Shown here: piece after piece, positions 16,699-53,035 of the stretch | How the letters are laid out: every line of letters begins with the position of its first letter | How positions within the stretch are numbered: the first letter of the stretch is position 1 | NCBI GenBank assembly: GCA_965207185.1 | Contig: OZ242271.1 | Coordinates: forward strand, 3,197,086 to 3,261,085 | Length of the DNA: 64,000 nt | Reading direction: 5' to 3' | Source of the DNA: Chloroflexota bacterium | GTDB lineage: Bacteria; Chloroflexota; UBA11872 | Translations under genes and position numbers: made by a program | The notes under the pieces: model-generated | Told to the model about the DNA's origin: nothing | Seen by the model: the letters and a program-made list of their open reading frames with translations, nothing else | Databases searched by the model: none

Positions 16699-16730
16699 GG
16701 TCCTCGTGTTTCGGGATTCAGGCAGACGGG

Positions 16731-17684: not shown

Positions 17685-17756
17685 GACGTGACCTAGGGAT
17701 CCCTTACACAGAAAAGGCGCGGCAGCACAGAACCAGCCGCGATGTGTCAAAGCCTA

Positions 17757-22400
<4,644 letters not shown>

Positions 22401-27774: not shown

Positions 27775-28877
27775 CGAAATGCGGCTCGAATTTTTTCAAC
27801 GAAGCTGCGTCCGCCTGAATCGCTGCCGCCCGGCAGGGTCTCGCGCAGGCTCTCGAGCAGTTGGCGCTGCTTGCGATTCAACTTTGTCGGGGTGGCCACG
27901 TGCACGAAGAGATAATGGTCGCCGCGTCCTGATCCCCGCAGGCGCGGCGCGCCCTTGCCGCGCAGCCGAATAGGCGTGCCAGCCTGAGTTCCAGCGGGAA
28001 TCTTGATGGAACTGGGACCGTCCGCGGTCTCGACGTCAAGGGTGGCGCCCAAGGCCGCCTCGGCGACGTTGACCACAACGTTGCTCAGGATGTTGTCACC
28101 GTCGCGCTCCAGGACTGGATGCGGCTTGACGTCGATGCCAATGTAAAGATCGCCTGGCGAGCCGCCGCGCGGTCCGTGATTGCCTTCGCCGGTCAGCCGC
28201 AGTTCGGTCCCCGGCTGTAGCCCTGCGGGAACCCTCACCTTGCGCTGCACTGAAAGGCGCTCCAGACCTATTCCGGTGCATGACGGGCACTTACTCTCGA
28301 CCACCCGCCCCGCGCCGCCGCAGGTGTCGCAAACCGTAACGTTGACGAACTGACCGAAGATTGACCGCTGCGCATGCTGAACCTGTCCGGAACCTCGGCA
28401 AGCCGCGCAGGTCGTGGGCGTGGTGCCGGGCGCCGCACCGTTGCCGGCGCACGTACCGCAGGGTTCAAGACGCCGGTAACTAACGTCGGTCTCAACTCCG
28501 AACACGCTGTCCAGGAAGTCCAGTTCCACTTCAACGCGTGCATCGGTTCCCTGCTGCGTCGCTCCAGGCCTCGCCCGGCGTCCGCCGCCAAAAAACGCGT
28601 CAAACACGTCGCCGATCCCGCCAAAGTCATCAAACCCCGCACCGAAGGGAGATCCGGGCCCCTCGTGGCCAAAGCGGTCGTAGTTCGCCCGCTTCTCCTC
28701 ATCGCGCAGAACCTCATAGGCCTCGTTGATCTGTTGAAAGCGGGCCGTGGCGTCCGGTTCGCGGCTGACGTCCGGGTGATGCCGCCGCGCCAGATCGCGA
28801 TACGCCTTGCGAATCTCGTCTGGCCCAGCGGTGCGATCGACGCCCAATACGTCGTAATAGTCGAGTTTGGCGCTCAC
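27771..28877 (-). CDS. dnaJ: chaperone DnaJ (class I, with CxxCxGxG zinc-finger repeats)
   Basis: J-domain (YYDVLGV...HPD) and Gly/Phe region; CGTCAGNG...CAACRGSG...CDTCGGAG...CPSCTGIG. Confidence 0.92.
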   Translation of the reverse strand: MSAKLDYYDVLGVDRTAGPDEIRKAYRDLARRHHPDVSREPDATARFQQINEAYEVLRDEEKRANYDRFGHEGPGSPFGAGFDDFGGIGDVFDAFFGGGRRARPGATQQGTDARVEVELDFLDSVFGVETDVSYRRLEPCGTCAGNGAAPGTTPTTCAACRGSGQVQHAQRSIFGQFVNVTVCDTCGGAGRVVESKCPSCTGIGLERLSVQRKVRVPAGLQPGTELRLTGEGNHGPRGGSPGDLYIGIDVKPHPVLERDGDNILSNVVVNVAEAALGATLDVETADGPSSIKIPAGTQAGTPIRLRGKGAPRLRGSGRGDHYLFVHVATPTKLNRKQRQLLESLRETLPGGSDSGGRSFVEKIRAAFR

Positions 28878-29557
28878 ACGGCCTCGCTGGCGTCGTCGCG
28901 CGAGGCATCGGCTGACCCAACGTCAGCATCGGGCGCGTCATCGGCTGCAGGTTTCGGTCCGGCCCTGACGAGGACAGGTCGAATGACACGATCGTGCATG
29001 CGAAAGCCCCGCTGCAGTTCAGTCACAACGACCGTGGCTTCATCCCCGTCCGTCATGACAACCTCGTGGATCTCCACATCGATCGGGTCGCCCGCCCGGC
29101 AGGCAATCGCGGTCACACCCACGGTCTCCAGCACGCGGTTTAGTTGCGCCTGGATCAGCGCCACGCCGTCGATCCAGGTGAGCAGCCGTAACTCAGACGG
29201 AATCGATACAAACGCACGCTCCAGCGCGTCCATGACACTCAGCAGCTCAAAGGCAAACGCCTGATTTGCGAACTTGGCAATTTCTTGAGCCTCCTCCGTC
29301 GTACGCCGACGGTAGTTGGCAAAGTCGGCCTGTACTCGCGTGAGTCGGTTGAGAAGATCCTGCCGACGCGCGTCGAGCTGTGCGACTTGCGCCTTCAGAT
29401 CCTCCAACTCGTCCAGCGGCCCCTCAGGGCCGCCGCCCTCGTCCGGAGTCGATGCCAGATCCTCATCAATGTTGGAAGCGGACCGATGGTCCGAGACTTT
29501 GACCTCGATCGGCGGTTCATCATCGGCGCCGCCAGCGCCATTCCTATCACTCACCAT
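28874..29557 (-). CDS. grpE: nucleotide exchange factor GrpE (copy 1)
   Basis: 227 aa with GrpE coiled-coil and ...RLTRVQADFANYRRR...FELL.V.D.LERA. Overlaps the dnaJ start by 4 nt. Confidence 0.85.
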   Translation of the reverse strand: MVSDRNGAGGADDEPPIEVKVSDHRSASNIDEDLASTPDEGGGPEGPLDELEDLKAQVAQLDARRQDLLNRLTRVQADFANYRRRTTEEAQEIAKFANQAFAFELLSVMDALERAFVSIPSELRLLTWIDGVALIQAQLNRVLETVGVTAIACRAGDPIDVEIHEVVMTDGDEATVVVTELQRGFRMHDRVIRPVLVRAGPKPAADDAPDADVGSADASRDDASEAV

Positions 29558-29653: not shown

Positions 29654-32446
29654 CTAGGGCGGTGGCGCAACGATGCGCACGTCGCCAGGCGTCACAACGA
29701 AATCCGCCGACGCTATGGCGCGGGCCCCAACCATAATCTCGACTCGCCAAGTTCCTGGCGCGGCCGTGGGCGGAAGTCCAAACCAGAATCCGAAACGCGC
29801 CTGCCCGTAGGCAGGCTGCGGATCAGTTAGGAAGGTCCCCTGGAGAGCGTCTCCCGCAAACCAGCGGATTCCAAGGCGCGAACCGCGCGCTACGTTCACA
29901 AATTCAATCGACACGTTGACACGCTCGCCGGGATGAAACGTCAGGGTCGGCTGAACCGGCTCCTGTCCCGGCCCAAGCTGCAAGGCCAGCACCACGCTAT
30001 TGGCCTCGGCCGACTCGTTCGCTGCGACATCCAGTGCCGCGCCGGGGCTTGCGGTCGGTGTCGGCGTGGCGGGTTGTCCCGTTGAAGACGGCCCCGCGCC
30101 TGGCTGTTCAGAGTAGATTCGCCAGATCAGCCCACGCGCTTCGAGCAGATACCCACTCCCGTCCGGCCCCAAGGCAATGTCAACCGACGTGAACAGCGGA
30201 ATGTCGCGAGCCAGGTCGCCGGGCTGCCCCTGACCCAACGGGTTGCCGGCAATGATCTGCGCGTGCCCGCCCGAATCGATTCTGGCGATTTGGCCGCTGC
30301 CGCTCGCCACGACATAGACGGCGCCGACCGCATCCGTGGCGACGCCAATTGGCGCATCCAGCCCAACTTCGCGGGCTGGACCTTCCGTGGGTGCCTCGGC
30401 CCGGCCCGATCCGGCCAAAGTACCGATCACGCCATCGGAATCGACACGGCGAACTACGCCCGCGTGGAGTTGGGTGATGAGCGCCGACCCGTCGGCATGC
30501 AGTGCCACACGCTGCGGGAATCCGACGGCGGCCTCAGTAGCTGGGCCACCGTCACCTCCGCTACCGTCCACGCCGCTTCCCGCGTAAGCGTGAATGAGGC
30601 CATCCGGGCGAATGACGCGCACCCGGTGGACCGGCCCGTCCACCACGAAAAGTGAGCCGTCAGCTCCTAATGCCAGGCCCACGGGCTCGGTGAACTGGGC
30701 ATCGCGAGCGGGACCGCCGTCGCCGCCAATACCGGGCTGCGAACCGCCGGCAAACGTAGTGATGACGCCGTCCGGGTCGATCTTGCGAATTCGAAAATTG
30801 CCCGAATCGGCCACGTAGATTGATCCGTTCGAATCGACGACGAGTGCTGAGGGACGGTTGAGCTGGGCTGCTACAGCGGTCAAGCCGTCGCCAGCGCTCC
30901 CGGGATCGCCGGTACCAGCGACGACACTCAACGCGCCATCGGGCTCAATACGACGGATTCGATGGTTGCCCGTGTCGGCAATCAGTAGACGCCCAACGCC
31001 GTCGATGGCGATGCCCCGCGGCGATGCCAGAGCGGCGCTGAGTCGAAATTCTCCGTCAGCTGCGTTGCCCGATTCGCCTGTACCCGCAAAGATCTCGGCC
31101 ACCAACGCACCGGCAAGGGGGGCGCCGCCGGTCAGGGCGGGCGCCGGCGGGACATAGGCGGCTACAGGCTGTGGTTCGGCCGGCTGAGCGTCCACCGCTC
31201 CAACCGCCTGCACGTCCACGGCGGGCTGTGCCCCCTCGGCGCCGGGCAGCGGCACCAGAGCACGAACCCGGCGCGCGCTCTGCTCGACGATAAGCAGGCT
31301 TCCGTCAAGCGTCGGCACGACATCCAGCGGCAGCGTCAGACGAGATTCCAGCGCTGGCCCACCGGACTCCACGCGACCACCCACCAGACCGGCGACCGTA
31401 TGCATGGTTCCATCAGGGTGGATTCGGCGAATACGCCGACTGTTCCAGTCGGCGATGAAGACTGCGCCGCTTGAGTCCACGACAACGCTTTGGGGCCCAT
31501 GGAGTTCAGCGGCGGTGGCCGGACCGCCGTCGCCAGCGCCGCCCGGCAACCCGGTGCCGGCAATCGTGTCAACCACGCCGCTTGTCGAAACCCGGCGAAT
31601 CCGATTGCCGGCCAGCTCGGCGATCAGCAGGTTGCCCTGGCCATCGACATCCACATCAACGGGCTGGTTGAGTGTTGCGGCCAGGGCCGGACCGCCGTCG
31701 CCAGAGCTTCCAGGCGCACCCGTGCCGGCCACCGTGGCCACGTTTCCGCGCGTGTCGACGCGGCGAACGCGATGAGCCGCCCGTTCAGCGATGAACAGGT
31801 TGCCATCGCCGTCAATCGCCATGCCCTCATTGCCTGCGGTCCTCGCAAATGCGGCTGGCCCGCCGTCGCCCTCCAGGCCCGCGTGGCCGTCGCCGAGAAT
31901 TGTGGACACCAGACCGGTTGGATCGATTCGGCGCACCCGATCAAGTTCCGCCACGAAGAGCGTGCCGGCTTGATCGACCAGCAGGCGGGTGGGATCGGTG
32001 AAGTCCGCTGCCAGGGCGTGTCCCCCGTCACCGCCGTAACCTCGCGTGCCAGTACCCGCCAGCGCTTCGATGACCCCATCGGTGCGGATGCGTCGAATGC
32101 GACTGGCACTGGGATCGGACACATAGATCAGTCCGTCAGAGCCAACCGCGACACCGCCGACACTTCGGAACTGCGCCGCCACGGCCGGGCCGCCATCGCC
32201 CGCATCGCCGATATCTCCGGTGCCCGCGAAGTCTGATATCAGCGCCGGCAGGCGAACTGGCGGCGGCAACGGCTGTGGCATCGGCGCGAAGTAGGCAGGC
32301 GGAGTTTGGGCGGCGCTTCCATCGGTGGACGGTGCGGAATCCGCGCCAAAGCCGCCAATGTCGCAGGCTGTGGCAGCCGAACCGACGGCGAGGAGACCCA
32401 GAACGCGCCGTCGGGAAGTCGTGATTCGCCGCCAGTTAGCCGGCAT
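29654..32446 (-). CDS. NHL-repeat beta-propeller protein, probable Tat-exported lipoprotein (930 aa)
   Basis: N-terminus RRITTSRRRVLGLLAVGSAATAC (twin-Arg plus lipobox-like Cys). It has at least 13 tandem NHL-type repeats (AGTG.PG..GDGGPA..A.L..P.GV.VD..GN.YIAD...N.RIRRI), split by Pro/Ala-rich linkers, plus a roughly 110-aa C-terminal domain. Confidence 0.8.
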   Translation of the reverse strand: MPANWRRITTSRRRVLGLLAVGSAATACDIGGFGADSAPSTDGSAAQTPPAYFAPMPQPLPPPVRLPALISDFAGTGDIGDAGDGGPAVAAQFRSVGGVAVGSDGLIYVSDPSASRIRRIRTDGVIEALAGTGTRGYGGDGGHALAADFTDPTRLLVDQAGTLFVAELDRVRRIDPTGLVSTILGDGHAGLEGDGGPAAFARTAGNEGMAIDGDGNLFIAERAAHRVRRVDTRGNVATVAGTGAPGSSGDGGPALAATLNQPVDVDVDGQGNLLIAELAGNRIRRVSTSGVVDTIAGTGLPGGAGDGGPATAAELHGPQSVVVDSSGAVFIADWNSRRIRRIHPDGTMHTVAGLVGGRVESGGPALESRLTLPLDVVPTLDGSLLIVEQSARRVRALVPLPGAEGAQPAVDVQAVGAVDAQPAEPQPVAAYVPPAPALTGGAPLAGALVAEIFAGTGESGNAADGEFRLSAALASPRGIAIDGVGRLLIADTGNHRIRRIEPDGALSVVAGTGDPGSAGDGLTAVAAQLNRPSALVVDSNGSIYVADSGNFRIRKIDPDGVITTFAGGSQPGIGGDGGPARDAQFTEPVGLALGADGSLFVVDGPVHRVRVIRPDGLIHAYAGSGVDGSGGDGGPATEAAVGFPQRVALHADGSALITQLHAGVVRRVDSDGVIGTLAGSGRAEAPTEGPAREVGLDAPIGVATDAVGAVYVVASGSGQIARIDSGGHAQIIAGNPLGQGQPGDLARDIPLFTSVDIALGPDGSGYLLEARGLIWRIYSEQPGAGPSSTGQPATPTPTASPGAALDVAANESAEANSVVLALQLGPGQEPVQPTLTFHPGERVNVSIEFVNVARGSRLGIRWFAGDALQGTFLTDPQPAYGQARFGFWFGLPPTAAPGTWRVEIMVGARAIASADFVVTPGDVRIVAPPP

Positions 32447-33803
32447 CGCCGCGCATCACAATCAGCAGGGTTCGCAACAAGATTCGCAAGTCGAACAGCA
32501 ATGACCAGTTTTCCACGTAATACAGGTCATAGCGCGTGCGGTCCGCGATTGACGAGTCGCCGCGCATGCCGTTCACCTGCGCCCAGCCCGTCACCCCTGC
32601 GCGCTCGCGGTGCCGGACCATGTAGCGCGAGAACTCACCGCGGAACGTGGCCACGTAATCGGGCTGCTCTGGGCGCGGCCCTACAAGGCTCATATCGCCG
32701 CGAATTACGTTCAGGAGCTGTGGCAATTCGTCAATCCAATAGCGCCGGAGAATCCGCCCGACGCGCGTCTGCCGAGGATCGTTAGCGACGGTCCAGGTCT
32801 GCCCGTACTCATCGGCGTCACTGACCATGGTCCGAAACTTCACGATTGGAAACGGTCGTCCGTCGCGGCCGACGCGCGTCTGCACGTAGAAGGCCGGACC
32901 CTTGGAGTCTAGCTTGATGATGAGGGCGATGAGCAGCATTGGGGCCGATGCCAGCAACAGCACAATCGAGGCCGCAACGAGGTCGAGCGAGCGCTTGGTA
33001 AAACGGCTGAGTCCTCGCAGGCGTACTTCATTGACCGCTATCAAGGGCAGTCCCCGAACGCCGCCTTCAACAACCGGTGAAACCATCAACTGAAAAAGAT
33101 CGGGCAGGAGCCAGACATCGGCGTACGACGCCTCAACCTCGGCAAGGATGGAAAGCAGATCGTCGTGAGAAAGTGAAGGGATGGCGACGACGACCTTGTC
33201 GATCTCGTGCTCCGCGATCACCTCTGAGAGCAGGGCGGATGTGCCCAGCACCGGGAATCGGCGTTCGCCAATGGATACGCGAGATTCAAAATCGTCAAGA
33301 AATCCAACCAGCTGATAACGACGGCTTGGATCCTCGAGCAGACGCCCGCCGACCTCGCGGCCTTCGGTCCCTGCCCCGATTACGAGCATCCGCTGGACCC
33401 CGACACCGCGCTGGGCCAGAACTCGCAGCAGCGCAGCGAGCAGCGACCGCCCTGACGCAACGAAAACAATGCCCAGCGGCCAAGCAATGGGCATGACGTT
33501 TCGCACAGGTTCCAGGCGGTCGGTAAAGACAAAGAAGGTCGCGGCTACAGCAAGCAGAGCGCCAATCGTGACCATGCCCCCACTGCGCGCAACCCTATCG
33601 ATGGGCCCCGCCGTCCGAAATCGCGAGTACATGCCCAGCGACAGACCGCCGATCACCGTGGCCACGGCAAACGCGATGATGACCGGCGCGAGAAATAGAA
33701 AGCGGTTCGGGGGCGTTCCCTCGAACCATCCGAAGCGATAGCGCATGTAGTAGCCCGCGATCAGCGCCAATCCGACGGCGACGACATCGGCCATGAGCGA
33801 CAT
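32436..33803 (-). CDS. polyprenyl-phosphate sugar phosphotransferase (WbaP/EpsB-type priming glycosyltransferase); start uncertain
   Basis: C-terminal Bac_transf domain ...LIIKLDSKGPAFYVQTRVGRDGRPFPIVKFRTM...WIDELPQL.NV..G.MSLVGPRPE... with N-terminal TM segments. The ORF is open to 34091, but that portion overlaps the upstream GT gene. A start at M97 (33803) or M100 is likely. Confidence 0.8.
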   Translation of the reverse strand: MSLMADVVAVGLALIAGYYMRYRFGWFEGTPPNRFLFLAPVIIAFAVATVIGGLSLGMYSRFRTAGPIDRVARSGGMVTIGALLAVAATFFVFTDRLEPVRNVMPIAWPLGIVFVASGRSLLAALLRVLAQRGVGVQRMLVIGAGTEGREVGGRLLEDPSRRYQLVGFLDDFESRVSIGERRFPVLGTSALLSEVIAEHEIDKVVVAIPSLSHDDLLSILAEVEASYADVWLLPDLFQLMVSPVVEGGVRGLPLIAVNEVRLRGLSRFTKRSLDLVAASIVLLLASAPMLLIALIIKLDSKGPAFYVQTRVGRDGRPFPIVKFRTMVSDADEYGQTWTVANDPRQTRVGRILRRYWIDELPQLLNVIRGDMSLVGPRPEQPDYVATFRGEFSRYMVRHRERAGVTGWAQVNGMRGDSSIADRTRYDLYYVENWSLLFDLRILLRTLLIVMRGDAG

Positions 33804-33841
33804 CGTGGAGACGAGGCCGCCCCAGTTGCGCCGCGCCCAGG

Positions 33842-34738
33842 TCAGCACGATGCGCTGTCCGTTTCTGCTGATCGGTGCGTCGCTAGCGCGCGCAGCACAC
33901 CGCCACAGCCAAGGACACATATTCCGGCCAGCACCAGGGCGCGCAGCGGCCAGGGATCGCCGACATGGTGTTTGGCGTAATAGCGCCACATTGACCTGTA
34001 GAACTCGAATCGAGTCCGAAGCGGGCGCTGCCGCGACGATTGGCGCTTGTGATGCCACACGCGCGCCTGTGGCACGAAGAGCGATTTCCACCCCGCGTTC
34101 GCAAGCCGCCGATGCAGGTCCAGATCATCGCCGTACATGAAAAATTCCGGATCAAACCCGCCAACCGCTGCGAAGGCCGTGCGGCGAACCATGAGACACG
34201 CGCCCGATACGGCGTCAATTTCACTTACGGAAGTGTCCACCGGGTCGCCGGCGTTGTAGAGCTTGATGCCGCTTCGGCTGAGGAATCGCGGGGAGCCAAG
34301 CAGTCGGTGCAACGCGTTAGCCGGTCGCGGAAAGTGCCGGCGAGCCGCCGGATCGAGACGACCGTCGGGCAGTGTCAGCCGTGGGCCGGCCGCGGCGACA
34401 TCCGGGCGATGGTTGAGTTCATTGGCCAGTGTCCCGATTGATGCCGGTTCCGGCTCCGTGTCTGGGTTGAGGAAAAGCACCAGTGGCGCCCGCGTGACGG
34501 TCGCTCCGATGTTGTTGGCGCCGCCGAATCCGAGGGCCGGCGAGCCGCGAATTGCTCGTACGTCGTTACGGGCCAAGAGCATCGGCCACGTGTCATCGCC
34601 ACAACCGTTGTCCACCACGGCGACCTCCAGCGTCTGCGAGCCGCGGGCGGCCTCCAAACTGTCGAGGCACCGCTCCAGCAGCGCGCGAACGTTGTACGTA
34701 GTGATGATGACGGCAACATCGGGATCGGCGGCGGTCAT
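33842..34738 (-). CDS. family 2 glycosyltransferase
   Basis: VAVIITTYN...NPDTEPEP... with GT-A fold DxD context and the ...FFMYGDDLDL.RR... motif typical of GT2. Confidence 0.8.
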   Translation of the reverse strand: MTAADPDVAVIITTYNVRALLERCLDSLEAARGSQTLEVAVVDNGCGDDTWPMLLARNDVRAIRGSPALGFGGANNIGATVTRAPLVLFLNPDTEPEPASIGTLANELNHRPDVAAAGPRLTLPDGRLDPAARRHFPRPANALHRLLGSPRFLSRSGIKLYNAGDPVDTSVSEIDAVSGACLMVRRTAFAAVGGFDPEFFMYGDDLDLHRRLANAGWKSLFVPQARVWHHKRQSSRQRPLRTRFEFYRSMWRYYAKHHVGDPWPLRALVLAGICVLGCGGVLRALATHRSAETDSASC

Positions 34739-35676
34739 TGCCGCCACCGACGCGACAGTCCGACGACGCAGCCCGCCATCTTGGCCACATCGCCAACGAT
34801 CCGTAGGACCGGAACCAGCGCGGGGACCACCAACGGCTGGGCGCCGGCGGTATGCCGGCCCATGGTCGGAGCACGCCGCAGGGAACGGCCCAGATAGGCC
34901 GTGGCCAGCAGTGTCAGGAAGGCCCGGGCCGCCGGCGACGGGTAGAGGAACAGGGCAAGACCCAGGGCATAGGCCCCATACCGCAGGGCGTGCCGCCGCA
35001 TAAGCATGCCCGCGTGTCCATCACCGGCGGCGTACAGAAAGTACTGCCTGAAGAAGGCCGCCACGCTGGAACGTGGGCGAATACCGACGTCGGCGCCCGG
35101 AGCATGGCGGAACCACCCGCCGTTGCGCCAGATTTCGCGGTCCAGCCACAAATCCTCACCGTGGGCGAGCCATTCGGGATATCCGCCGACACGCTGCAAC
35201 CATTCGCGTCGAAAGAGCGCCGACCCGCTGCTTGGCGGATAGCGCGTCGGGTCGATCTGGCGCGCAAGCGGTAGTGCCACCGCACCAAGCGCCGCCTCGA
35301 ACGTCGTTTGCGGCGCGGCCAGAATGTAGCCATAGGATCCCGCTGCAAGCGGTTCGTCCTGGGCGGCGGTAACGAGCGACCGAAGCCAGCCCGATGAGCG
35401 TCGTAGGCCGGCGTCCGTTACCGCCACGAACGGCGCCGTTGTCGCCTCAATCGCGAGATTGCGTCCGGCAGCGATATTGGTTCCCGGAGCCCGTCGCAAT
35501 CTGAATCGCGGGTCGCCGGCAACCGCCCCGTGTAACGCTTCATACGTGCCGTCGGTGGAACCGCCGTCAACAATCACGATCTCGTCGGCCGCCAGGTCCT
35601 GTTCGACCAGACTTGCCACCATCGACGCTGCGTCGGCGGCTTCATTCTTCACGGTGGCGCACACGGCAACGGTCAT
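34735..35676 (-). CDS. family 2 glycosyltransferase
   Basis: MTVAVCATVKNEA...IVIVDGGSTDGT... (GT2 N-terminal signature). I trimmed the start to M11 so that ATGA overlaps the upstream stop. Confidence 0.75.
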   Translation of the reverse strand: MTVAVCATVKNEAADAASMVASLVEQDLAADEIVIVDGGSTDGTYEALHGAVAGDPRFRLRRAPGTNIAAGRNLAIEATTAPFVAVTDAGLRRSSGWLRSLVTAAQDEPLAAGSYGYILAAPQTTFEAALGAVALPLARQIDPTRYPPSSGSALFRREWLQRVGGYPEWLAHGEDLWLDREIWRNGGWFRHAPGADVGIRPRSSVAAFFRQYFLYAAGDGHAGMLMRRHALRYGAYALGLALFLYPSPAARAFLTLLATAYLGRSLRRAPTMGRHTAGAQPLVVPALVPVLRIVGDVAKMAGCVVGLSRRWRQ

Positions 35677-36887
35677 GGTGTTGCTCTCGCCGCGGCTGGC
35701 GTACACGTACGCGCATAGGCGTTGCGGAGCTGCTGCCCAACCATCGAGGCGTCGTGCTCGGCCTTGACGTATATGAATCCCCCGGCGGCCGCCTGCTCAT
35801 AAGCCACCGGGTTCGTAAGCAAGGTCGTTACCGCGTTCACGAAGTCCACGGACCGGGCAGGCCGCCTGACGCCGATATCGTTATTCGCCGGCAGGCCGAC
35901 ATATCCCTGGGCACGGGCCACCACCGGCCGGCCAGCGGCCAGAGCCGACAGCACTTTATATGGCGCACCCGCGGCCACCGACGTGGGCGACACGGCGAGC
36001 CAGGCCCGTTGGTATTCCCGATCGATATCGTCCACGGTTCCGCCCAGCGTAGTTTGCACCGGCATGATCGAACGCAAATCGTCCGACTGCGGACCAACAA
36101 CGCGCAGCTCTGCGCTCGGCACCTCACGCGTGACGGCCGGCCAGACCTGACCAAAGAGCCATTCGGCCGCCAGGAGGTTTGGGCGGTAGGCAAAGTTTGC
36201 GGCAAACAGTACGCGCGGATGCCCGGTTCGGCCGTCAACGCCAGGAGGCGCCGCTCCCAGCCGAACGGGGTGAGGGAGGTACTCCGGCGCCGAGGCGCCC
36301 AGCGCTGCCAGACTTGCGCGGTCGTCAGGGGACGAGGCCAAAACCAAGTCAGCGGATCGTGCCACCCAGCCCTCGACCCGACGCAGCAACCCGGCCTGAC
36401 GGCGTGCCCAGAGGGAGCGTGGAAGGGTACCTGCCCGTGCCAATGATTCTTGCAGCACCCACTCGATATTGTGCGCGTCGTAGATGACGCGCGGTCGTCT
36501 GAACTGACGCGGCGTGACGGTCCAGACGTCGCGAATCATGGGAGCCAGTTGCACCTGCGCCACATGCACCGCCCCATACGCACCGCTGCTCAACAGTAGC
36601 TGGACACGCCCTCGCAGACTGCGGGATCCGTGACGAATGAGCAGATCTGGCACACCTCCACGCCAGCCGCCCAGCAGCCGCCGCCAGACCATTGGCGGCG
36701 CCGCGCGAATTTGGATGACACGATTGATGGACGAAGGCGCCTCAACCGGTGCCGCACCCGGCCGATCGAGTGTGACGAGGTCCACGGTGTGCTCAGCCGC
36801 CAGGGCTTCCAGCAACAGGCTGTTCCGCAGCGCCGCACCGTGGGTCGGTGGCCACGGCGGTGTCGAGGTAATCGCCAGGACCTTCAC
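35673..36887 (-). CDS. GT-B (family 4/group 1) glycosyltransferase
   Basis: MKVLAITSTPPWPPTHGAALR... N-terminus and a C-terminal GT1/GT4-like domain. Confidence 0.75.
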   Translation of the reverse strand: MKVLAITSTPPWPPTHGAALRNSLLLEALAAEHTVDLVTLDRPGAAPVEAPSSINRVIQIRAAPPMVWRRLLGGWRGGVPDLLIRHGSRSLRGRVQLLLSSGAYGAVHVAQVQLAPMIRDVWTVTPRQFRRPRVIYDAHNIEWVLQESLARAGTLPRSLWARRQAGLLRRVEGWVARSADLVLASSPDDRASLAALGASAPEYLPHPVRLGAAPPGVDGRTGHPRVLFAANFAYRPNLLAAEWLFGQVWPAVTREVPSAELRVVGPQSDDLRSIMPVQTTLGGTVDDIDREYQRAWLAVSPTSVAAGAPYKVLSALAAGRPVVARAQGYVGLPANNDIGVRRPARSVDFVNAVTTLLTNPVAYEQAAAGGFIYVKAEHDASMVGQQLRNAYARTCTPAAARATP

Positions 36888-37951
36888 GTGCAGGCCCTGT
36901 ACACCGCCAGCGTGTCACGCGCCGTTCGTTCCCAGCTGTATTCGCTCGCTCGGGCACGGCCCCCGGCACTCAGCCGGCCGCGCAGATCAGCATCGTCAGC
37001 CAGCCGATCGATGGCTCCGGTCAACCCGTCCGCATCGTTCGGGTCAATCAGCAGAGCGTCGTCGCCGACAAGCTCGGGCAGCGTGCCGGCCCGGGCCGCG
37101 ATCACGGGCGTTCCACATCCCATCGCTTCGAGTGCGGGAAGGCCGAATCCCTCATCATGCGAGGGCATGAGCACGAACTCGGCCTGCGCAAACAGTCGCG
37201 CCAGGGTTGCATCGGCCACCCGTCCAAGAAACCGCACCGTGCTCGTTCCCTGCTCGGCCCGGACGGCTCGGATGATGGCCGACCCGCGGTAGCCGATCGA
37301 CCCGACAATCAGCAGGGATCCCTGGCGAGCGAAGCGAGAGGCGCCAAACGCACGCGCCGCCAGCCCGATATTCTTGCGCGGCTGGATGGTTCCAACCATC
37401 AATGCGAAGGGCGCAGGCCATTCCCGGCGCTGGCGCCCAGCCGTGACCGCCGGTAGCCCGGACGCATACGGAACGACCGTCACACAATCCGCCGAAACCA
37501 GGTCGCGTCCCACCAGCGCCGACCGCATGTGCTTGGACGGGACGATAATCCTTCTCGCCCGACGCAGCGTCCCAATCGAGGCCGCATAGTGCCGACGGCT
37601 GGCTGCCGAATGTGTCTCAGGCTGAGTGAGAAACGAAATGTCGTGCACGGTCACAATCGCGGGCCGATTGACGCCGTGCGGTATCCCGTGGTCGGGAAAG
37701 TGCACCAGGTCGGCGCCGCGCAGGGCCCGCGGCAGAAACGCGCGTTCCAGCCGGTTGCGGGCAGGAACCGCCACCGGGCGCGCGCGGAGCGACGGGTGGC
37801 CGGGAAGTCCGCCGCGTCGATCCACGAGTAGCTCCAGGTCGATGCCCGTGTGCGGAAGCTTGGCCAGGGCCTCTTGCAGACGCCAGATGTAGCGCCCGAT
37901 CCCTGCCTGGTCGTGTCGAAGCATTCGCCCGTCCAGCGTTACGCAGGTCAT
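36884..37951 (-). CDS. GT-B (family 4/group 1) glycosyltransferase
   Basis: C-terminal ...LMPSHDEGFGLPALEAMGCGTPVIAARAGTLPELVGD... (E-x7-E GT4 motif). Confidence 0.8.
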   Translation of the reverse strand: MTCVTLDGRMLRHDQAGIGRYIWRLQEALAKLPHTGIDLELLVDRRGGLPGHPSLRARPVAVPARNRLERAFLPRALRGADLVHFPDHGIPHGVNRPAIVTVHDISFLTQPETHSAASRRHYAASIGTLRRARRIIVPSKHMRSALVGRDLVSADCVTVVPYASGLPAVTAGRQRREWPAPFALMVGTIQPRKNIGLAARAFGASRFARQGSLLIVGSIGYRGSAIIRAVRAEQGTSTVRFLGRVADATLARLFAQAEFVLMPSHDEGFGLPALEAMGCGTPVIAARAGTLPELVGDDALLIDPNDADGLTGAIDRLADDADLRGRLSAGGRARASEYSWERTARDTLAVYRACT

Positions 37952-39333
37952 GGCTGTTCACACGCCCCTTGGGCAACTCGCGTGACGATCAACCCAACCA
38001 GCGCCCCAAGCAGGTAGACGAGGTGCGGAAAGCTCGCGATGTGATGGTCGAACAGTCCCGCGGTGGCGAACGCCACCAGCGAAGCCAGCAACGGCCGGAC
38101 CTCCGGATCGGCGGCCGACGACCTGATGGCTGCCCACGTCGTGACGCCAATCAGGGTCAGATGCGTCAGCGCGGCGCCGACGCCCGCGCGCTCGGCCAGC
38201 CAGAGCCAGGCATTTGAAACCCCGGCAAAAATATCCGGATGCGGCGCGTCGCCATATCCCACGCCCAGGAGCGGAAATCGGCTGATGACGCGGGACGCCT
38301 CGCGAATCTCGTCAAGTCGCAGCGCCGCGGAACGGTCGCCGCCCAGAAAGCCTTGGCGAATTCGTTCAAATGGCTCCAGTGGCGCGGCCACGACCGCGGC
38401 GCCCAGCACGGCCGCTGCCGCCGCCGCCAGACGCGGTCGGACCAGCGCCAGCCACACCAGCAGACCGGCGGCGGCGGCAATCCAACTCGCGCGCGAAATC
38501 GTCAACGCCAGGGCCACACCAATCAGCGCTGCGGCGGCTAATCCCAGCGCGGAGCGCCGTCGGCCGCCGCCAAGCCACGCCAACCCAAACGGCAGCGCCG
38601 CCGCCAGGGTGACGCCCAGGACGTTGGGATCGACCAACAGCCCTGTCGCTCGCACCGTCACTTGGTCCGGCAAGAAACGCGCCACGCCCGTAGTCGGGTA
38701 TCCGGCCGTTCCGAGCGACTCAAGCAACCGGATTCCCTTCGCCCCCACCACGTGCAGACCGATGGCGACAACGGCTTGGCAGGCGGCTGCGACGGCGACG
38801 AAGGAACCAACGGTCCGCAGCGAGCGCGGTCCCAGACCCGACATCCTCACCATCAGCGGCGCCAAGCCGTAAAGCGACATCTTCACCGCTAGTTGCCCCG
38901 CCTGGACGTCGCTTGACGCTCCGTGTGCCGCGACGCCGGCGGCCAACGGCAGCGCCGCCCCCAGAGCTACCACGCCCACGAACCATCGGGGGGGCACTTC
39001 CCATCCGCCGATTGCCGCGGGCCGGCTCCGGATCGCTCGCACTGCAATCCCTGCGAACGTCGCCGCCACGATGACGTCGAGAACCGGCGGCTGCACGCCG
39101 AACCGCTGGGGAACCACCAGGAAAGGCGCCAACAGAGCCACGCCCAGTGCCGTCACAAGGCCGGCCGCCGGCCGCATGAGACCAAGCCCGGCCCCCAGGA
39201 CGGCAACGCCACCGGCCAGCGCCGCCGGCGGCGGCCTGGCCCCACCAAGCACGCCGGCTAGGATCGCGGCCAAAGCCAGCGCCGAGAGAATCGTCAGCCG
39301 CGTGCCTGCGCTGGGCAGCCTGGCCGCAGTCAC
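37948..39333 (-). CDS. O-antigen ligase/polymerase-like (Wzy_C family) polytopic membrane protein
   Basis: 461 aa, roughly 10-12 predicted TM helices, large periplasmic-loop region ...ALTISRASWIAAAAGLLVWLAL... typical of the Wzy/WaaL family. Confidence 0.65.
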   Translation of the reverse strand: MTAARLPSAGTRLTILSALALAAILAGVLGGARPPPAALAGGVAVLGAGLGLMRPAAGLVTALGVALLAPFLVVPQRFGVQPPVLDVIVAATFAGIAVRAIRSRPAAIGGWEVPPRWFVGVVALGAALPLAAGVAAHGASSDVQAGQLAVKMSLYGLAPLMVRMSGLGPRSLRTVGSFVAVAAACQAVVAIGLHVVGAKGIRLLESLGTAGYPTTGVARFLPDQVTVRATGLLVDPNVLGVTLAAALPFGLAWLGGGRRRSALGLAAAALIGVALALTISRASWIAAAAGLLVWLALVRPRLAAAAAAVLGAAVVAAPLEPFERIRQGFLGGDRSAALRLDEIREASRVISRFPLLGVGYGDAPHPDIFAGVSNAWLWLAERAGVGAALTHLTLIGVTTWAAIRSSAADPEVRPLLASLVAFATAGLFDHHIASFPHLVYLLGALVGLIVTRVAQGACEQP

Positions 39334-39363
39334 CGCATGAACACGTACGGACTCGGGTGTTCT

Positions 39364-39738
39364 CTACCCGTCGTCCGTGTTGGCGTCGCCGGTGCTCGCG
39401 GCCGTCTCCCGTGCCTTCCAAGCTTCGTAAGCGGCCTGATCGACAAGCTCGCCGCCCTCGATGGTGTAGTCACCGGTATAGGCCCGGCCCGTATCGAACA
39501 CCAGGTACAGGTGGATCGTTCGAAAGCTCTTGGCTCCAATGATGTCCTTGTTCGTCGTGTAGTGCGACGCCCCATCGCCTTGCCCGTCAAACTCCGGCGA
39601 GAGGTCGGCGTTCGGGTCCACGCGAACGTCGATGATCTCGTCCGCGTACTTGCTCTTGACGTAGAAATGCCACGCGGTGTCAACAGGTTCCTTCGACCCG
39701 CCGTCGCCGCCGCCGAAGATTCGTCGAAAAAAACCCAT
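39364..39738 (-). CDS. hypothetical protein (124 aa, soluble, acidic; no family recognised)
   Basis: ORF with host-like codon usage embedded between Wzy-like and GT2 genes: MGFFRRIFGGGDGGSKEPVDTAWHFYVKSKYADEIIDVRVDPNADLSPEFDGQGDGASHYTTNKDIIGAKSFRTIHLYLVFDTGRAYTGDYTIEGGELVDQAAYEAWKARE... Confidence 0.5.
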   Translation of the reverse strand: MGFFRRIFGGGDGGSKEPVDTAWHFYVKSKYADEIIDVRVDPNADLSPEFDGQGDGASHYTTNKDIIGAKSFRTIHLYLVFDTGRAYTGDYTIEGGELVDQAAYEAWKARETAASTGDANTDDG

Positions 39739-39756
39739 CGTCGTCCTCCACCTGCG

Positions 39757-40704
39757 TCAACGCTCGAGTAAGGCGTCTATATAAGCGTCCGCCACGCGGC
39801 GTGAACGCTGGCGGCGCGCCCGCTTGCTCCAGGCCCGGGGCAGATGCGCAATCGACGCCAACTGGCCCGCCAGCGTGGCGCGCGCCGCTCGTCCCTGAAT
39901 CGCGCGCAGCGCCGCAACCATCAGTTTAAGCTGCGCCCAGGCAATCCGCCACAAAAACCCGGGCATATTCATCACCGCAACCAGCGGCCGGTTACGCGCC
40001 ACCAGGTAACTGGCGATCGGCCCGCCCGCCGTGGCGCTCAAACGGTGACGCACGACGGCGTCCGGCACGTAGCGACAACGATGCCCCGCCATCTGGGCTC
40101 GCCAGTCAAGATCGATGTCTTCGCAGTACATCACCAGGTCTTCATCAAAGACGCCAACGTCGTCGAATAACTGGCGCCGATAGGCCGACGCGGCCGCGCA
40201 GGCGCCAAATACCTCGCATGGCTCCCGATAGATCGGTCCATCCGGCTGCCAAACCCCGCGATTGGCCGGCAGCCCGTTGCGACTGAACGTGTCGCCGGCC
40301 GCGTGCAGGCGCGACGGATCGTCGTACAGCAGGATTCGGGAGGCGAGGAAGCTGGCGTCGGGCGTTGTCGAGAACGCCCGGTCCAACGCCGCCAGCCATC
40401 CCGGCTCCGGCACGGCGTCGCTGTTGAGCAGCGCGATGAACTTTCCGCGAGTAACCGCGATGCCTCGATTGAGCGCGGCTGCAAGTCCGCGCTGACACGG
40501 AATCTCCACGACCCGATCGCCAGGCCGCTGCGCGCGCATCCAGGCCACCGTGTCGTCGTCGGAACCATCGTCCACCACCACTTCAAAGTCGCGCAGCAGC
40601 TGCCCGTCCAGCCCGTCCAGCGCCTCTTCCAGCAGATGCCGCCCATTCCAGGTCGGGATCAGGACCGACCAGCGCGGTGCGTCCGTGTCCCCACCGGCCG
40701 TCAC
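39757..40704 (-). CDS. family 2 glycosyltransferase (rhamnosyltransferase-like)
   Basis: WSVLIPTWNG...VVVDDGSDDDT...SDAVPEPGWL... GT2 signature. Confidence 0.8.
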   Translation of the reverse strand: MTAGGDTDAPRWSVLIPTWNGRHLLEEALDGLDGQLLRDFEVVVDDGSDDDTVAWMRAQRPGDRVVEIPCQRGLAAALNRGIAVTRGKFIALLNSDAVPEPGWLAALDRAFSTTPDASFLASRILLYDDPSRLHAAGDTFSRNGLPANRGVWQPDGPIYREPCEVFGACAAASAYRRQLFDDVGVFDEDLVMYCEDIDLDWRAQMAGHRCRYVPDAVVRHRLSATAGGPIASYLVARNRPLVAVMNMPGFLWRIAWAQLKLMVAALRAIQGRAARATLAGQLASIAHLPRAWSKRARRQRSRRVADAYIDALLER

Positions 40705-41550
40705 CTAGGCGGCAATCTCTCGGATATGAGCCGACAGCGCCTCGCCCCAGGGCCGTAGTGTCACGCCAATGGCGCGTGCGGTTTCGTTTGCGAGTTCGGC
40801 GTTCGCCGGCACCGCCGCTGTGCGCGGAAACTCGCTGGCGCTGATCTCCTCCAGCGCGACGTCCCTGCGGTCCAGCCCGGTCAGAAAAGCGGCCGCCCAG
40901 CCGTACCAGCTGGTCGCGCCTTCGTTAACCAGGTGGTGCACGCCAAACGCTTCGGTCTCCGTCAATTCCAGAATCGCTCTGGCCAGGTCGCCGGCGTTCG
41001 TTGGATTGGCCACCTGGTCGCCCACGTAGCGCAGCGGGCCGTCAGCCGCATCCACCTGCACGAGACGACTCAGAAAATTTCGGCCCCAACGACTGTACAG
41101 CCAGCTGGTGCGGACAACGTAGAGCCGCTCCAGCACTTGGCGCGCAGCCCGCTCGCCGTGCAACTTCGTCCAGCCGTAGGCGCTCAGTGGCGCCGGGTCG
41201 TCGTATTCCAGATAGGGACCGAGCTTCCGACCGTCAAAGACGTAGTTGGTGCTTACGTACACCATCTGCGCGCCCGCGCGCTCGACGGCCCGTGCCACGT
41301 TCCACGTCCCCACGGCGTTTACCCGATAAGCCTCCGCCCGGTCGCGCTCGCAGCCGTCGACGTTCGTCGCAGCCGCCGTGTGGATGACCAGACGCGGTGA
41401 GATCTCACCCAGCGTTCGCTCGACCAGCGATGCGTTCGTTATGTCGAGTTGCGAGCGGTTCAACGTCACGGCCGTCTGCTCGTCCAGCCGTCGTGTCAAT
41501 TCAATGCCCAGTTGACCGCCGGCGCCTGTCACCACCGTGGCCCCGCTCAC
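40705..41550 (-). CDS. rfbD: dTDP-4-dehydrorhamnose reductase
   Basis: 281 aa: VVTGAGGQLG...VIHTAAATNVDGCE....AY.VNA.G..N.A.A......VYVSTNYVFDG...PY.E.D...PLSAYG.TK (RmlD Rossmann/YxxxK). Confidence 0.85.
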   Translation of the reverse strand: MSGATVVTGAGGQLGIELTRRLDEQTAVTLNRSQLDITNASLVERTLGEISPRLVIHTAAATNVDGCERDRAEAYRVNAVGTWNVARAVERAGAQMVYVSTNYVFDGRKLGPYLEYDDPAPLSAYGWTKLHGERAARQVLERLYVVRTSWLYSRWGRNFLSRLVQVDAADGPLRYVGDQVANPTNAGDLARAILELTETEAFGVHHLVNEGATSWYGWAAAFLTGLDRRDVALEEISASEFPRTAAVPANAELANETARAIGVTLRPWGEALSAHIREIAA

Positions 41551-41551
41551 C

Positions 41552-41830
41552 CTACGACTCCGAATCGTCGGGACCCGACTCGGCGTACATCAGCCCTACC
41601 GCAAACGCCGCCGTCACCACCGCCACCGCCACGAGTCCCGCGTATTGCACGACGCCCAAGGCACGCCCGGCCGAAATCATGAAGACCAGGGCCGTCAGAA
41701 CGGCCGCCAACACAAGAAACGCCATCACGGCGGGGCGGCGGAGAAGTGTCAATCGGGAGCGCAGAAAGTTACCGTCCAGGCTGCGTATCCGGTGCGCATA
41801 CCCCGGAGGGCTATCATACCAGCGTGGCAC
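41552..41830 (-). CDS. small hypothetical membrane protein (2 TM); start uncertain
   Basis: 92-aa ORF with two hydrophobic helices (MAFLVLAAVLTALVFMISA...; LVAVAVVTAAFAVGLMY). Its stop is 1 nt before the rfbD start. The start may be internal (M36). Confidence 0.45.
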   Translation of the reverse strand: MPRWYDSPPGYAHRIRSLDGNFLRSRLTLLRRPAVMAFLVLAAVLTALVFMISAGRALGVVQYAGLVAVAVVTAAFAVGLMYAESGPDDSES

Positions 41831-41868: not shown

Positions 41869-43206
41869 ATGCCGCCGACACTGCTCCCCGCCCACCGTGT
41901 GTTCATCTGGACCATCGGCTGCCAGATGAACCGCGCCGACGGTGAACGGATTCAGCGCGAACTCCAGCGCGCCGGCCACGCATCCGCCGATACCCTGGCC
42001 GAGGCCACCGCGGTCGTCGTCAACGGCTGCGCCGTGCGGGATAACGCCGACCGCAAGGTCTGGGGCATGCTCGGCATGATCAAGGGTCTCAAGAAAACCA
42101 AGCCCCATCTCGTCGTCGGCCTCACCGGCTGCACCGTGCACGCCGACGAAGCCGAACTGGCGCCTCACCTCGATCCCGTGGACGTGCTGTTCGACACCCT
42201 CAACGCCGAGCCCCTGCTTGCCAGGCTGGCCCGCTCGGCCCCGGCCGACGCGCCTGCCTACGAGGACGTCGAAGCCCAACCCGCGCCCGGCGCCGGAGCC
42301 GTCTCCCGTTTCGTCAATGTCATCTATGGTTGCGACAAGCGCTGCACCTACTGCATCGTTCCCTTCCGACGCGGCGCCCAGCGCAGCCGGCCCCTGGATG
42401 AAATCCTTGACGAGGTCCGCCGCTTCCGCGACGAGGGTGCGCGCGAGATTGTCCTGCTCGGCCAGATCGTCAACGCCTACGGGTTCGATCTGGACGGGAC
42501 CGGACTGCCGGATGTGCTCCACGCCGTGGACGCCGTGGACGGCATTGAGCGAATTCGCTTCACCACCGCCCACCCCCGCTATATGACCCGGGCGCTGGCG
42601 GAGGCAATGCGCGACATTCCAGGCGTGTGCGAAGAAATCAACCTTCCGGTGCAGTCGGGAGACGACTGGGTTCTCAAGCGCATGGCGCGCGGCTACAGCT
42701 CGGGTTTCTATCGCGACACGATCGACATGCTGCGCGCCACCGTGCCGGGGGTGGCCCTGACCACCGACATCATCGTGGGCTTCTGCGGCGAGCTGGAGGA
42801 ACACTTCCGAAACTCCCTGCGGTTGGTGCGCGACCTGCGCTTCGATCAGGTCCACGTCGCCGCCTTTTCGCCTCGCCGGGGTACCGTCGCCGCCGAGTGG
42901 TCCGACGACGTACCGCAGGCCGAGAAGCTACGCCGCCTCCATCGCATCGAGCGTGAACAGACCGTCATCGCCGAAGACATCAACCGCGCCTACCTCGGCC
43001 AACAGCCCGAGGTCTTGTTCGAAGAGCTCACCCCGGGCAAGGGGGAGCGGAACGAGCCGCGCTGGCGCGGCCGCACGCGGACGAACAAGCTGGTCTTCAC
43101 CCCGGATCATTCCCGCCTGGTTCCCGGTGCTACGCATGCAGTCCGGATCACGGCGGCCACGCCATGGTCGCTCCGGGGCGCGGTCCCCCCCGGCGCCACT
43201 GTCTGA
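41869..43206 (+). CDS. miaB: tRNA-2-methylthio-N6-dimethylallyladenosine synthase (MiaB-type radical SAM methylthiotransferase)
   Basis: 445 aa: N-terminal MTTase domain RVFIWTIGCQMN, radical-SAM CTYCIVPFRRG, C-terminal TRAM domain. Confidence 0.85.
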   Translation: MPPTLLPAHRVFIWTIGCQMNRADGERIQRELQRAGHASADTLAEATAVVVNGCAVRDNADRKVWGMLGMIKGLKKTKPHLVVGLTGCTVHADEAELAPHLDPVDVLFDTLNAEPLLARLARSAPADAPAYEDVEAQPAPGAGAVSRFVNVIYGCDKRCTYCIVPFRRGAQRSRPLDEILDEVRRFRDEGAREIVLLGQIVNAYGFDLDGTGLPDVLHAVDAVDGIERIRFTTAHPRYMTRALAEAMRDIPGVCEEINLPVQSGDDWVLKRMARGYSSGFYRDTIDMLRATVPGVALTTDIIVGFCGELEEHFRNSLRLVRDLRFDQVHVAAFSPRRGTVAAEWSDDVPQAEKLRRLHRIEREQTVIAEDINRAYLGQQPEVLFEELTPGKGERNEPRWRGRTRTNKLVFTPDHSRLVPGATHAVRITAATPWSLRGAVPPGATV

Positions 43207-43212
43207 CGGCCG

Positions 43213-45729: not shown

Positions 45730-45929
45730 AGGTCCCTGCTCCACACCTGGAGACCACGGACGCAAACGATGCGTCGTCGAATTGGGCGCCTTCGGAACAT
45801 CCAGGCAGTTCGTGCGCGTGCGATAGTCCGAGTCTATCCGCGAACGTCGGGTCGCCTCTGCTATATTTCGTACCGGCCCGGACGCCACCGCGTCGGGCCG
45901 CTTTTACGTGCCCGGACTCCACCAACCGT

Positions 45930-52518: not shown

Positions 52519-52527
52519 GCGCGCCGC

Positions 52528-53028: not shown

Positions 53029-53035
53029 CGGACCT

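Follow-up and report, generated by a model that had tools for sequence, protein, structure and literature searches.

By what route does a bacterium move a lipid-linked glycan across its membrane, when the genes that build the glycan are accompanied by no recognisable flippase or exporter? This question is raised by a locus in a 64,000-nucleotide stretch of DNA from a Chloroflexota bacterium of the UBA11872 lineage (GenBank assembly GCA_965207185.1, contig OZ242271.1, positions 3,197,086 to 3,261,085; the whole stretch is called the window below), which encodes a priming sugar transferase, five glycosyltransferases (GTs), a polytopic membrane protein with a Wzy_C domain and a single enzyme of rhamnose synthesis. 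The evidence favours a mundane answer, namely that the flippase is encoded elsewhere in the genome. The best explanation overall, put forward tentatively and with somewhat less than even confidence, is a split polyprenyl-phosphate-dependent surface-glycosylation operon. Its backbone, in which a heterooligosaccharide is built on a lipid, flipped by an unlinked flippase and handled outside the membrane by a WaaL-fold protein, is considered probable.

The operon and its enzymes

The ten open reading frames (ORFs) of the original prediction, which was made from the sequence alone, were recovered at their coordinates (41830-32436), all on the minus strand, and Pfam and NCBIfam searches, of the HMM kind that it had recommended, returned each of the families it had named. 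The count of ten did not hold, as an eleventh gene, encoding an NHL-repeat protein (29654-32446), lies below the lower boundary that had been drawn. In the order of the operon, the features are as follows.

41813..41821, minus: operon promoter, extended -10 box TGGTATGAT, inside the annotated 92-aa ORF
41765..41812, minus: conserved non-coding leader (5′ untranslated region or operator), ~48 nt, ~90% nucleotide identity
41552..41764, minus: two-helix membrane hairpin of ~70 aa, predicted N-in/C-in (the mechanical ORF runs to 41830)
40705..41550, minus: RmlD, dTDP-4-dehydrorhamnose reductase, 281 aa (PF04321, 272 bits)
39757..40704, minus: GT2 glycosyltransferase GT2_315, 315 aa, no transmembrane (TM) segment (PF00535, 76 bits; 0-nt gap to the rmlD stop)
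39364..39738, minus: 124-aa soluble protein of an uncharacterised family (amphipathic N-terminus MGFFRRIFGGG, beta domain, acidic tail)
37948..39333, minus: WaaL-fold (Wzy_C) polytopic membrane protein, 461 aa (PF04932 match)
36884..37951, minus: GT4, 355 aa (PF00534, 92.6 bits; ATGA overlap with the Wzy_C stop)
35673..36887, minus: GT4, 404 aa (PF13692, 53 bits; GTGA overlap)
34735..35676, minus: GT2, 313 aa from ATG 35676, hydrophobic C-terminus (PF00535, 66.8 bits)
33842..34738, minus: GT2, 298 aa from ATG 34738, C-terminal hydrophobic segment (PF13641, 69 bits; PF00535, 63 bits)
32436..33848, minus: priming polyprenyl-phosphate hexose-1-phosphate transferase of the WbaP/WcaJ type, 470 aa (PF02397, Bac_transf, 225 bits; PF13727, CoA_binding_3)
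29654..32446, minus: Tat-signal lipoprotein NHL930, 930 aa, last gene of the operon (TEN_NHL, 189 bits in 8 stretches; NHL, 115 bits)

Read 5′ to 3′, the junctions between the first ten genes measure +1, 0, +18, +30, -4, -4, -4, -4 and -7 nt, and the tenth, from the priming transferase into the NHL gene, is -11 nt, with ATG 32446 of NHL930 overlapping the transferase stop. The 4-nt overlaps that had been described for nearly every junction are found at four of the nine, although all the genes are close-packed. The locus is one operon with an extended -10 promoter, divergent from the neighbouring miaB gene, and this architecture counts, alongside the enzyme families, among the demonstrated points.

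In a DNA alignment of orthologous upstream regions, the box TAT[G/C]ATA preceded by TG is invariant (17 of 17), and it is kept even in relatives whose flanking DNA is otherwise unalignable. A consensus promoter and terminator scan returned no promoters and 14 terminator-like sites (9.5±3 expected); the scanner overlooked the box because there is no -35 box. The first codon of the 92-aa ORF is no start codon in two of the orthologous loci. More specifically, variability at codon positions 1, 2 and 3 across 15 such loci is 0.112, 0.088 and 0.114 in codons 1-26 and 0.139, 0.095 and 0.402 in codons 36-84, and the equal variability of the three positions in the former stretch, which also holds the invariant TGGTATGAT, marks it as non-coding. 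The predicted 92-aa protein is thus an over-extended ORF, the first ~22 codons of which are the operon promoter and leader; the description of the small protein as having two TM segments is correct, as two hydrophobic segments are present. The leader has no Rfam match and its structure is not above that of shuffled sequences (z = +1.31). Its strong conservation might reflect an operator site.

The priming transferase scores 423 bits against TIGR03025 (cut-off 296), falls just under the WcaJ equivalog threshold (407.7 vs 410.75) and has five hydrophobic segments; its start is GTG 33848 and not 34091, in agreement with orthologues of 469-470 aa. The ORF listing likewise runs past the starts of the two adjacent GT2 enzymes, to 34747 for the 298-aa protein and to 35706 for the 313-aa protein, the ATGA overlaps being at 34738 and 35676, respectively. 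With a priming polyprenyl-phosphate sugar-1-phosphate transferase and repeat-unit GTs, the locus has this part of what characterizes Wzx/Wzy loci. A match to PF20706 ('GT4-conflict', 54.6 bits) lies beneath the stronger generic GT4 match (92.6 bits), and its reading as a defence system was rejected; no locus protein matched the anti-phage models of PADLOC.

The 461-aa membrane protein matches Wzy_C (PF04932) over residues 267-365 with 40.8 bits (cut-off 31.7), and this or a related family is found in all 60 homologues. No sequence-level match to the PDB was obtained, either with the single sequence or with a profile. An AlphaFold model, built from 21 homologues (pLDDT 82, pTM 0.85), had as its sole significant Foldseek match in the PDB the WaaL O-antigen ligase (7tpg_B, E 4.6e-6, TM-scores 0.55/0.62), and the modelled polytopic fold (~12 TM helices) is superimposable on the solved WaaL. 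The original prediction had called the protein Wzy/WaaL-like and had named its being a flippase or synthase as the finding that would overturn this; the Wzy_C profile and the WaaL fold uphold the designation, and identity with a MOP/Wzx flippase was rejected, as MATE/MOP structures reach a TM-score of only ~0.11 to the model. From this model we infer an extracytoplasmic ligase or polymerase acting on a polyprenyl-PP-linked glycan. PglL_A, Wzy_C_2 and TPR regions were not detected in the protein even at E<=10, which lowers the probability that it is a PglL but not that it acts as an O-oligosaccharyltransferase (O-OTase).

RmlD passes the TIGR01214 equivalog model (273.6 bits, cut-off 224), and it is the only one of the four rml genes in the locus: RmlA, RmlB and RmlC are absent from the window, as had been predicted, and from the syntenic flanks. 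In a distant locus designated L038, the 2-TM gene, rmlD and the GT2 gene beside it are missing together, and the trio therefore behaves as a single add-on module. Its joint absence is the best available support for GT2_315 being a rhamnosyltransferase, a donor specificity that is itself putative, and for the hairpin being its partner.

NHL930 is translationally coupled to, and conserved with, the glycan genes. Its gene directly follows the priming transferase in every syntenic locus, and in the relatives checked it starts at most 10 nt from the transferase stop or overlaps it. Repeated NHL blades score above the cut-off (PF01436/PF25021), and the best PDB matches are a teneurin-like protein (E 2.6e-75) and the NHL domains of TRIM71. 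In an alignment with 20 orthologues, the protein consists of two propellers of about six blades each (~66-400 and ~441-780), separated by a variable Ala/Pro linker, then a Thr/Pro/Ser-rich linker (residues 781-815) whose composition is kept while its sequence varies, and a conserved C-terminal beta domain of ~110 aa. As read from this alignment, a twin-arginine motif S-R-R-[RQ] is present in 19 of the 21 sequences (the exceptions being L021 with SRRF and L024 with PRRR), and an A/G/T-rich h-region ending in [AG]-C, with an invariant lipobox Cys, in all 21. These features point to a Tat-exported bacterial lipoprotein.

The missing flippase and the fate of the glycan

The original prediction saw no Wzx-type flippase, Wzz or ABC transporter, and for the window this is borne out. 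A Pfam scan of coding-like ORFs of at least 100 aa across the 64 kb, on which all negatives for the window rest, found no MOP flippase, ABC-2/ABC exporter, Wzz/PCP, LCP or RmlA/B/C; no Wzx/MurJ (MOP) profile matched the 461-aa protein or any other scanned ORF, and neither the window nor the precomputed Pfam annotations of syntenic loci contained a Wzm/Wzt or PglK-type exporter. The comparative synteny that had been recommended recovered the same gene order in related loci, and no flippase, ABC exporter, Wzz or RmlABC was found within 10 kb of the locus in ~30 syntenic relatives. The co-located Wzx and PCP/Wzz of Wzx/Wzy loci are thus missing from the window and its syntenic flanks.

Neighbourhoods in more distant relatives were surveyed in 26 long loci with Wzy_C homologues, in which the large multi-TM neighbours were listed and a subset was scanned with Pfam. 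These neighbours comprised PMT_2, YfhO, DUF2142, LPG_synthase_TM and FtsW/RodA proteins, transporters and one SpoIIM-ABC-2 fusion, and no Wzx was among those scanned (ten from eight loci, plus those of the locus L082). The lack of a linked flippase therefore appears to be a trait of the neighbourhoods of this whole Wzy_C subfamily and not a peculiarity of the window. As rmlABC are unlinked too, the pathway is evidently split across the genome, and the oddity that the original prediction implied for the absent flippase is weak.

The operon belongs to an uncultured, obligately host-associated lineage. With one genome per species scanned, the 124-aa protein was found in 22 Chloroflexota metagenome-assembled genomes (MAGs), plus one remote match in Anaerolineae. 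MAGs of the same names are placed by GTDB in c__UBA2235; o__UBA11872; f__UBA11872 (Robbins et al. 2021, supplementary file 9), and the UBA2235/UBA11872 lineage has been reported only from corals and sponges (PMC10608941). The syntenic order, established with tblastn and gene-call tables, is miaB (divergent), 2-TM, RmlD, GT2, 124-aa, Wzy_C, GT4, GT4, GT2, GT2, priming transferase, NHL, (hrcA), grpE and dnaJ, with identities to the window of ~70-90% in close relatives and ~45-65% in more distant syntenic MAGs (L003, L025). The G+C content of the window is ~62-70%, and the third-position G+C (GC3) of the locus, 0.69-0.81, is host-like and gives no sign of recent horizontal acquisition. The operon is part of the core genome and vertically inherited, unlike the variable islands that encode capsules or O-antigens.

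In L029, whose Wzy_C protein is 47% identical, the 124-aa gene is the only one missing. Two more distant loci are L038, recovered by scanning metagenomes with the Wzy_C alignment, and L082. L038 (Wzy_C 33%, NHL 41%, GC 59%) has the order miaB, 124-aa-like, Wzy_C, GT4, GT4, GT2, GT2, priming transferase, NHL, hrcA and grpE, so that the same GT set and order persist down to 27-43% identity. Two overlapping ORFs (10015-11474) make up its priming transferase, and its NHL ORF (11701-13815) has no signal peptide; a frameshift, a pseudogene or an assembly error is possible in each case. L082 (Wzy_C 28%) retains the five-gene core Wzy_C-GT4-GT4-GT2-GT2 alone, next to a DegT aminotransferase, an epimerase, a 2-TM GT2, an LPG_synthase_TM protein and a 1060-aa GT-C enzyme of the YfhO family. 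These surroundings (5165-9703 and 15744-18926) also contain a 766-aa 8-TM protein without Pfam match; the LPG_synthase_TM protein is flippase-like, and together they resemble a three-component glycosylation system that uses polyprenyl-phosphate sugars. The persistence of the GT set in L038, and of the core in L082, suggests a fixed glycan structure as opposed to a hypervariable capsule or O-antigen.

Under the preferred explanation, the WcaJ/WbaP-type transferase would load hexose-1-phosphate onto the lipid carrier at the cytoplasmic face, and two GT4 and two GT2 enzymes would lengthen the lipid-linked glycan. The module of RmlD and the soluble GT2, possibly tethered by the ~70-aa membrane hairpin, would add one L-rhamnose to give roughly a hexasaccharide, with dTDP-4-dehydrorhamnose supplied by rmlABC at other sites in the genome. 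A flippase encoded elsewhere would then flip the finished lipid-PP-oligosaccharide, and outside the membrane the WaaL-fold protein may move the glycan en bloc to an acceptor, in the mode of a ligase or O-OTase. The best candidate acceptor would be the co-translated NHL lipoprotein, with its Thr/Pro/Ser-rich linker. En bloc transfer and polymerisation are nearly balanced, and we put the former at a little under an even chance. What favours it is the translational coupling of the NHL gene, the lack of chain-length and attachment genes, the long-term fixed GT set and the precedent of S-layer glycosylation (slg) clusters, in which a WbaP-type initiator, rhamnosyltransferases, rml genes and an O-OTase with a Wzy_C domain are found with an adjacent target-protein gene (PMC2943079). 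That NHL930 itself is the acceptor is rather unlikely.

Several points weigh against this explanation. By sequence and fold, a Wzy polymerase cannot be told apart from a ligase or an O-OTase, and the extensions of characterised O-OTases (PglL_A, Wzy_C_2, TPR) are lacking in the 461-aa protein. The last gene of an 11-gene operon is an unlikely source of an abundant S-layer protein, and T/P-rich linkers are common in unglycosylated proteins. In L082, the five-gene core is surrounded by wall-glycosylation genes of the GT-C/YfhO kind, a setting in keeping with a wall polymer, and neither the flippase nor rmlABC was located in the window or the syntenic flanks. Moreover, the adjacency of miaB and grpE is conserved as deeply as that of the NHL gene, a sign that these genomes generally keep a rigid gene order, in which adjacency is weak evidence of function.

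Many of the same observations can be read as a Wzx/Wzy heteropolysaccharide pathway, in which the 461-aa protein would be the repeat-unit polymerase of a conserved, rhamnose-containing wall or capsular polymer, wzx, a chain-length regulator, LCP and rmlABC would lie elsewhere, and NHL930 would be a mere neighbour or a polymer-binding accessory. We regard this as a serious contender, though on balance doubtful. The gene composition is typical of loci for exopolysaccharides (EPS), capsular polysaccharides (CPS) or O-antigens, the primer passes TIGR03025 ('exopolysaccharide biosynthesis'), the GT4 enzymes resemble those of EPS systems, and the Wzy_C proteins of monoderms are much more often Wzy polymerases than O-OTases. 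The absence of O-OTase-specific domains and the joining, in L082, of the core to YfhO, PMT_2-like and LPG_synthase_TM wall-glycosylation genes point the same way, and since rmlABC are unlinked, further parts may be unlinked as well. Such a pathway sits less easily with a GT content that stays constant across class-level divergence, something uncommon among polymer loci such as those for capsules or O-antigens, with the translational coupling to a secreted lipoprotein, and with the lack of Wzx, PCP/Wzz and LCP within 10 kb in ~30 syntenic and 26 distant loci. The WaaL-fold enzyme might also use a lipid or glycolipid as the anchor onto which the glycan is ligated, in the style of LPS-core ligation. 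The closest solved structure is indeed an O-antigen ligase and O-OTase accessory domains are missing, but no genes for the synthesis of a lipid anchor occur in the locus or the window and we know of no Chloroflexota precedent, so that such a lipoglycan seems improbable.

A very improbable alternative dispenses with MOP and ABC flippases altogether, the glycan being moved by an oligomer of the 2-TM hairpin or by the WaaL/SEDS-fold protein. It would account for the lack of a recognisable flippase near this Wzy_C subfamily at any depth examined, and the 2-TM protein does have a conserved Arg and Tyr in its outer loop. L038 does without the 2-TM protein but retains the rest of the pathway, and the protein can therefore not be a general flippase; WaaL is not known to flip its own substrate, unlinked flippases are common, and the unlinked rmlABC already reveal a split pathway. 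In its widest form, by which the operon and the wider Wzy_C subfamily are flippase-free, the mover is the WaaL/SEDS-fold protein or small membrane partners, and the product is a dedicated glycan coat on the eukaryote-like NHL lipoprotein, used by an obligately sponge-associated lineage at the interface with its host, the idea is likewise very improbable. If it is true that the genomes have no flippase, the locus would bear on how else lipid-linked glycans cross membranes.

The products originally proposed, i.e. S-layer or protein glycosylation or a wall polysaccharide, are still the right shortlist, and the enzyme set supports a polyprenyl-phosphate-linked assembly locus. NHL repeats are among the classes of 'eukaryotic-like' domains reported to be enriched in sponge symbionts (PMC3977351). 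Being fixed lineage-wide and set among housekeeping genes, the operon is a candidate determinant of host recognition or of the avoidance of phagocytosis, and its primer, five GTs and WaaL-fold transferase form a compact, self-contained cassette, a candidate for glyco-engineering hosts.

Small proteins and surrounding genes

The 124-aa protein was predicted to be soluble and uncharacterised, and it has neither a membrane segment nor, even at E<=10, a match in Pfam, NCBIfam or PADLOC (the 92-aa ORF likewise has no accepted match in these). Lacking a membrane segment, it is therefore no flippase. That the gene is real is evident from the variability of its codon positions (0.068/0.028/0.342) and from a conserved Shine-Dalgarno sequence, GGTGGAGGA; it is among the most constrained of the locus, with up to 95% identity in close relatives. 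Among 5.8 billion proteins there are only 23 close clusters, and an exhaustive profile search gave 192 clusters of stand-alone relatives of ~100-130 aa. The family signature is an N-terminal M-x-F-[LF]-[RK]-[RK]-[LI]-F-G, usually with a CxxC half zinc ribbon, the cysteines of which are lost in the UBA11872 and L038 members. One homologue of 33% identity, from an Anaerolineae MAG (L026), adjoins genes for 2-oxoacid:ferredoxin oxidoreductase. This context, and the absence of the gene from L029, weaken the idea of a glycan-specific protein, yet it is kept in the distant L038. Probably, it is a peripheral, membrane-associated accessory protein. In L002 (10367-11190), and in the same region of L022, ~820 nt separate the gene, there of 121 aa, from Wzy_C, whereas the window has a gap of 30 nt at this point. 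When translated, the L002 spacer contains the recurrent motifs PRETI, ARNHP and REKPS, which suggests a repeat-rich insertion.

The hairpin belongs to a family confined to this lineage, with conservation limited to its core. In the start column the window has CTG (41764-41762) where distant orthologues have ATG or GTG, and alternative starts are TTG 41752 and GTG 41728 (66 or 58 aa). The N-terminus of the protein is basic and the C-terminus acidic, and the short outer loop, G-R-A-L..Q-Y, is conserved; its match to ABC2_membrane_2 is below the cut-off (E 0.067, 12.9 bits vs 27.2) and was judged to be noise. By analogy with the small two-helix subunits of eukaryotic dolichol-phosphate-mannose synthase, it possibly tethers or stabilises the soluble enzymes of the rhamnose module.

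On the other side of miaB, a second beta-propeller protein with a Tat motif and a lipobox, PQQ_2-like, is encoded on the plus strand (42953-45010); the ORF as listed overlaps the 3′ end of miaB by ~250 nt, and the true start is probably later. With a 293-aa single-TM protein without Pfam match (45007-45888, minus), it makes up a pair of operon neighbours kept in all relatives, including the distant L038. Together, the PQQ_2-like neighbour and the NHL gene thus bracket the glycan operon with two propeller lipoproteins.

The window also contains two chaperone sets (27771-29557 and 51583-54940). The former, grpE-dnaJ-prmA, is directly downstream of the NHL gene, and the latter is a dnaK-grpE-dnaJ-merR(hspR-like)-clpB block. 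In several relatives (L003, L027, L038) hrcA stands between the NHL gene and grpE, which is not so in this window, and no CIRCE element was found before grpE or anywhere else in the window. By Pfam, the window outside the operon comprises ribosomal-protein operons, SecY, Map, EF-Tu/EF-G, rpoB/rpoC, HIT and PrmA, and further the two DnaJ/GrpE sets, DnaK, ClpB, Lon, MiaB, GNAT, NUDIX, creatininase, DUF2851 and enzymes of the shikimate pathway. Two coding-like ORFs near the ribosomal/secY region (268-891, plus, 207 aa; 2546-2971, plus, 141 aa) have no Pfam match.

Comparison with known systems

The closest solved structure to the 461-aa protein, WaaL of Cupriavidus metallidurans (PDB 7TPG/7TPJ), is only 16% identical to it, and with a Chloroflexota host and no lipid A-core genes in view, the acceptor must differ from that of WaaL. 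PglL/PilO O-OTases (Neisseria, Pseudomonas, Acinetobacter) have the Wzy_C core in common with it, while their PglL_A, Wzy_C_2 and TPR regions were undetected here. The acceptor sites of these enzymes, which transfer lipid-PP-oligosaccharides en bloc, are Ser/Thr residues in low-complexity stretches, rich in Ala/Pro/Ser, of periplasmic proteins and lipoproteins, and in PglL systems a flippase such as PglF is normally found among the GT genes, unlike in this locus.

For the rhamnose module, a likeness is offered by the mycobacterial pair Rv3266c-Rv3265c, in which rmlD lies beside wbbL, the gene of a soluble GT2 rhamnosyltransferase, and rmlA, rmlB and rmlC are scattered in the genome. The likeness is in gene arrangement only, rmlD being beside a soluble GT2 gene in both; the mycobacterial pair serves the arabinogalactan linker on a decaprenyl carrier primed with GlcNAc-1-P, whereas here a hexose-1-P primer is combined with a WaaL-fold enzyme.

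The slg clusters of Geobacillus stearothermophilus NRS 2004/3a and Paenibacillus alvei (WsaP/WsfP, WsaC-F, RmlA-D, Wzm/Wzt, WsaB/WsfB; PMC2943079) share with this operon a monoderm host, a five-TM initiator of the WbaP type, rhamnose chemistry (with a putative rhamnosyl specificity here), several soluble GTs, a final transferase with a Wzy_C domain and an adjacent gene for a candidate acceptor. They have a Wzm/Wzt exporter and a complete rmlA-D set, whereas here there is no ABC exporter and rmlD alone, and the Wzy_C protein is short (461 aa), without a TPR partner or domain. Their target is a strongly and separately expressed, self-assembling S-layer protein, whereas the neighbour here is a Tat lipoprotein with NHL propellers, encoded last in the operon. 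With Wzx/Wzy loci (O-antigen, group 1 capsules, Gram-positive CPS/EPS), the operon shares its WcaJ/WbaP-class primer, its GT2 and GT4 enzymes and its polytopic Wzy_C protein. It differs from them in that Wzx, PCP/Wzz or CpsCD and the genes for export or attachment are missing from the locus and its flanks, and in being core, syntenic and compositionally native, not variable. The parts of the Wzx/Wzy, slg and PglL systems that are lacking here are most simply explained by a genome-split pathway. In its logic, the locus is closest to the slg clusters and the Wzx/Wzy loci and is an ordinary kind of operon with unusually deep conservation; what it adds to these known systems is this lineage-wide conservation, the coupling to an NHL lipoprotein and two uncharacterised small proteins.

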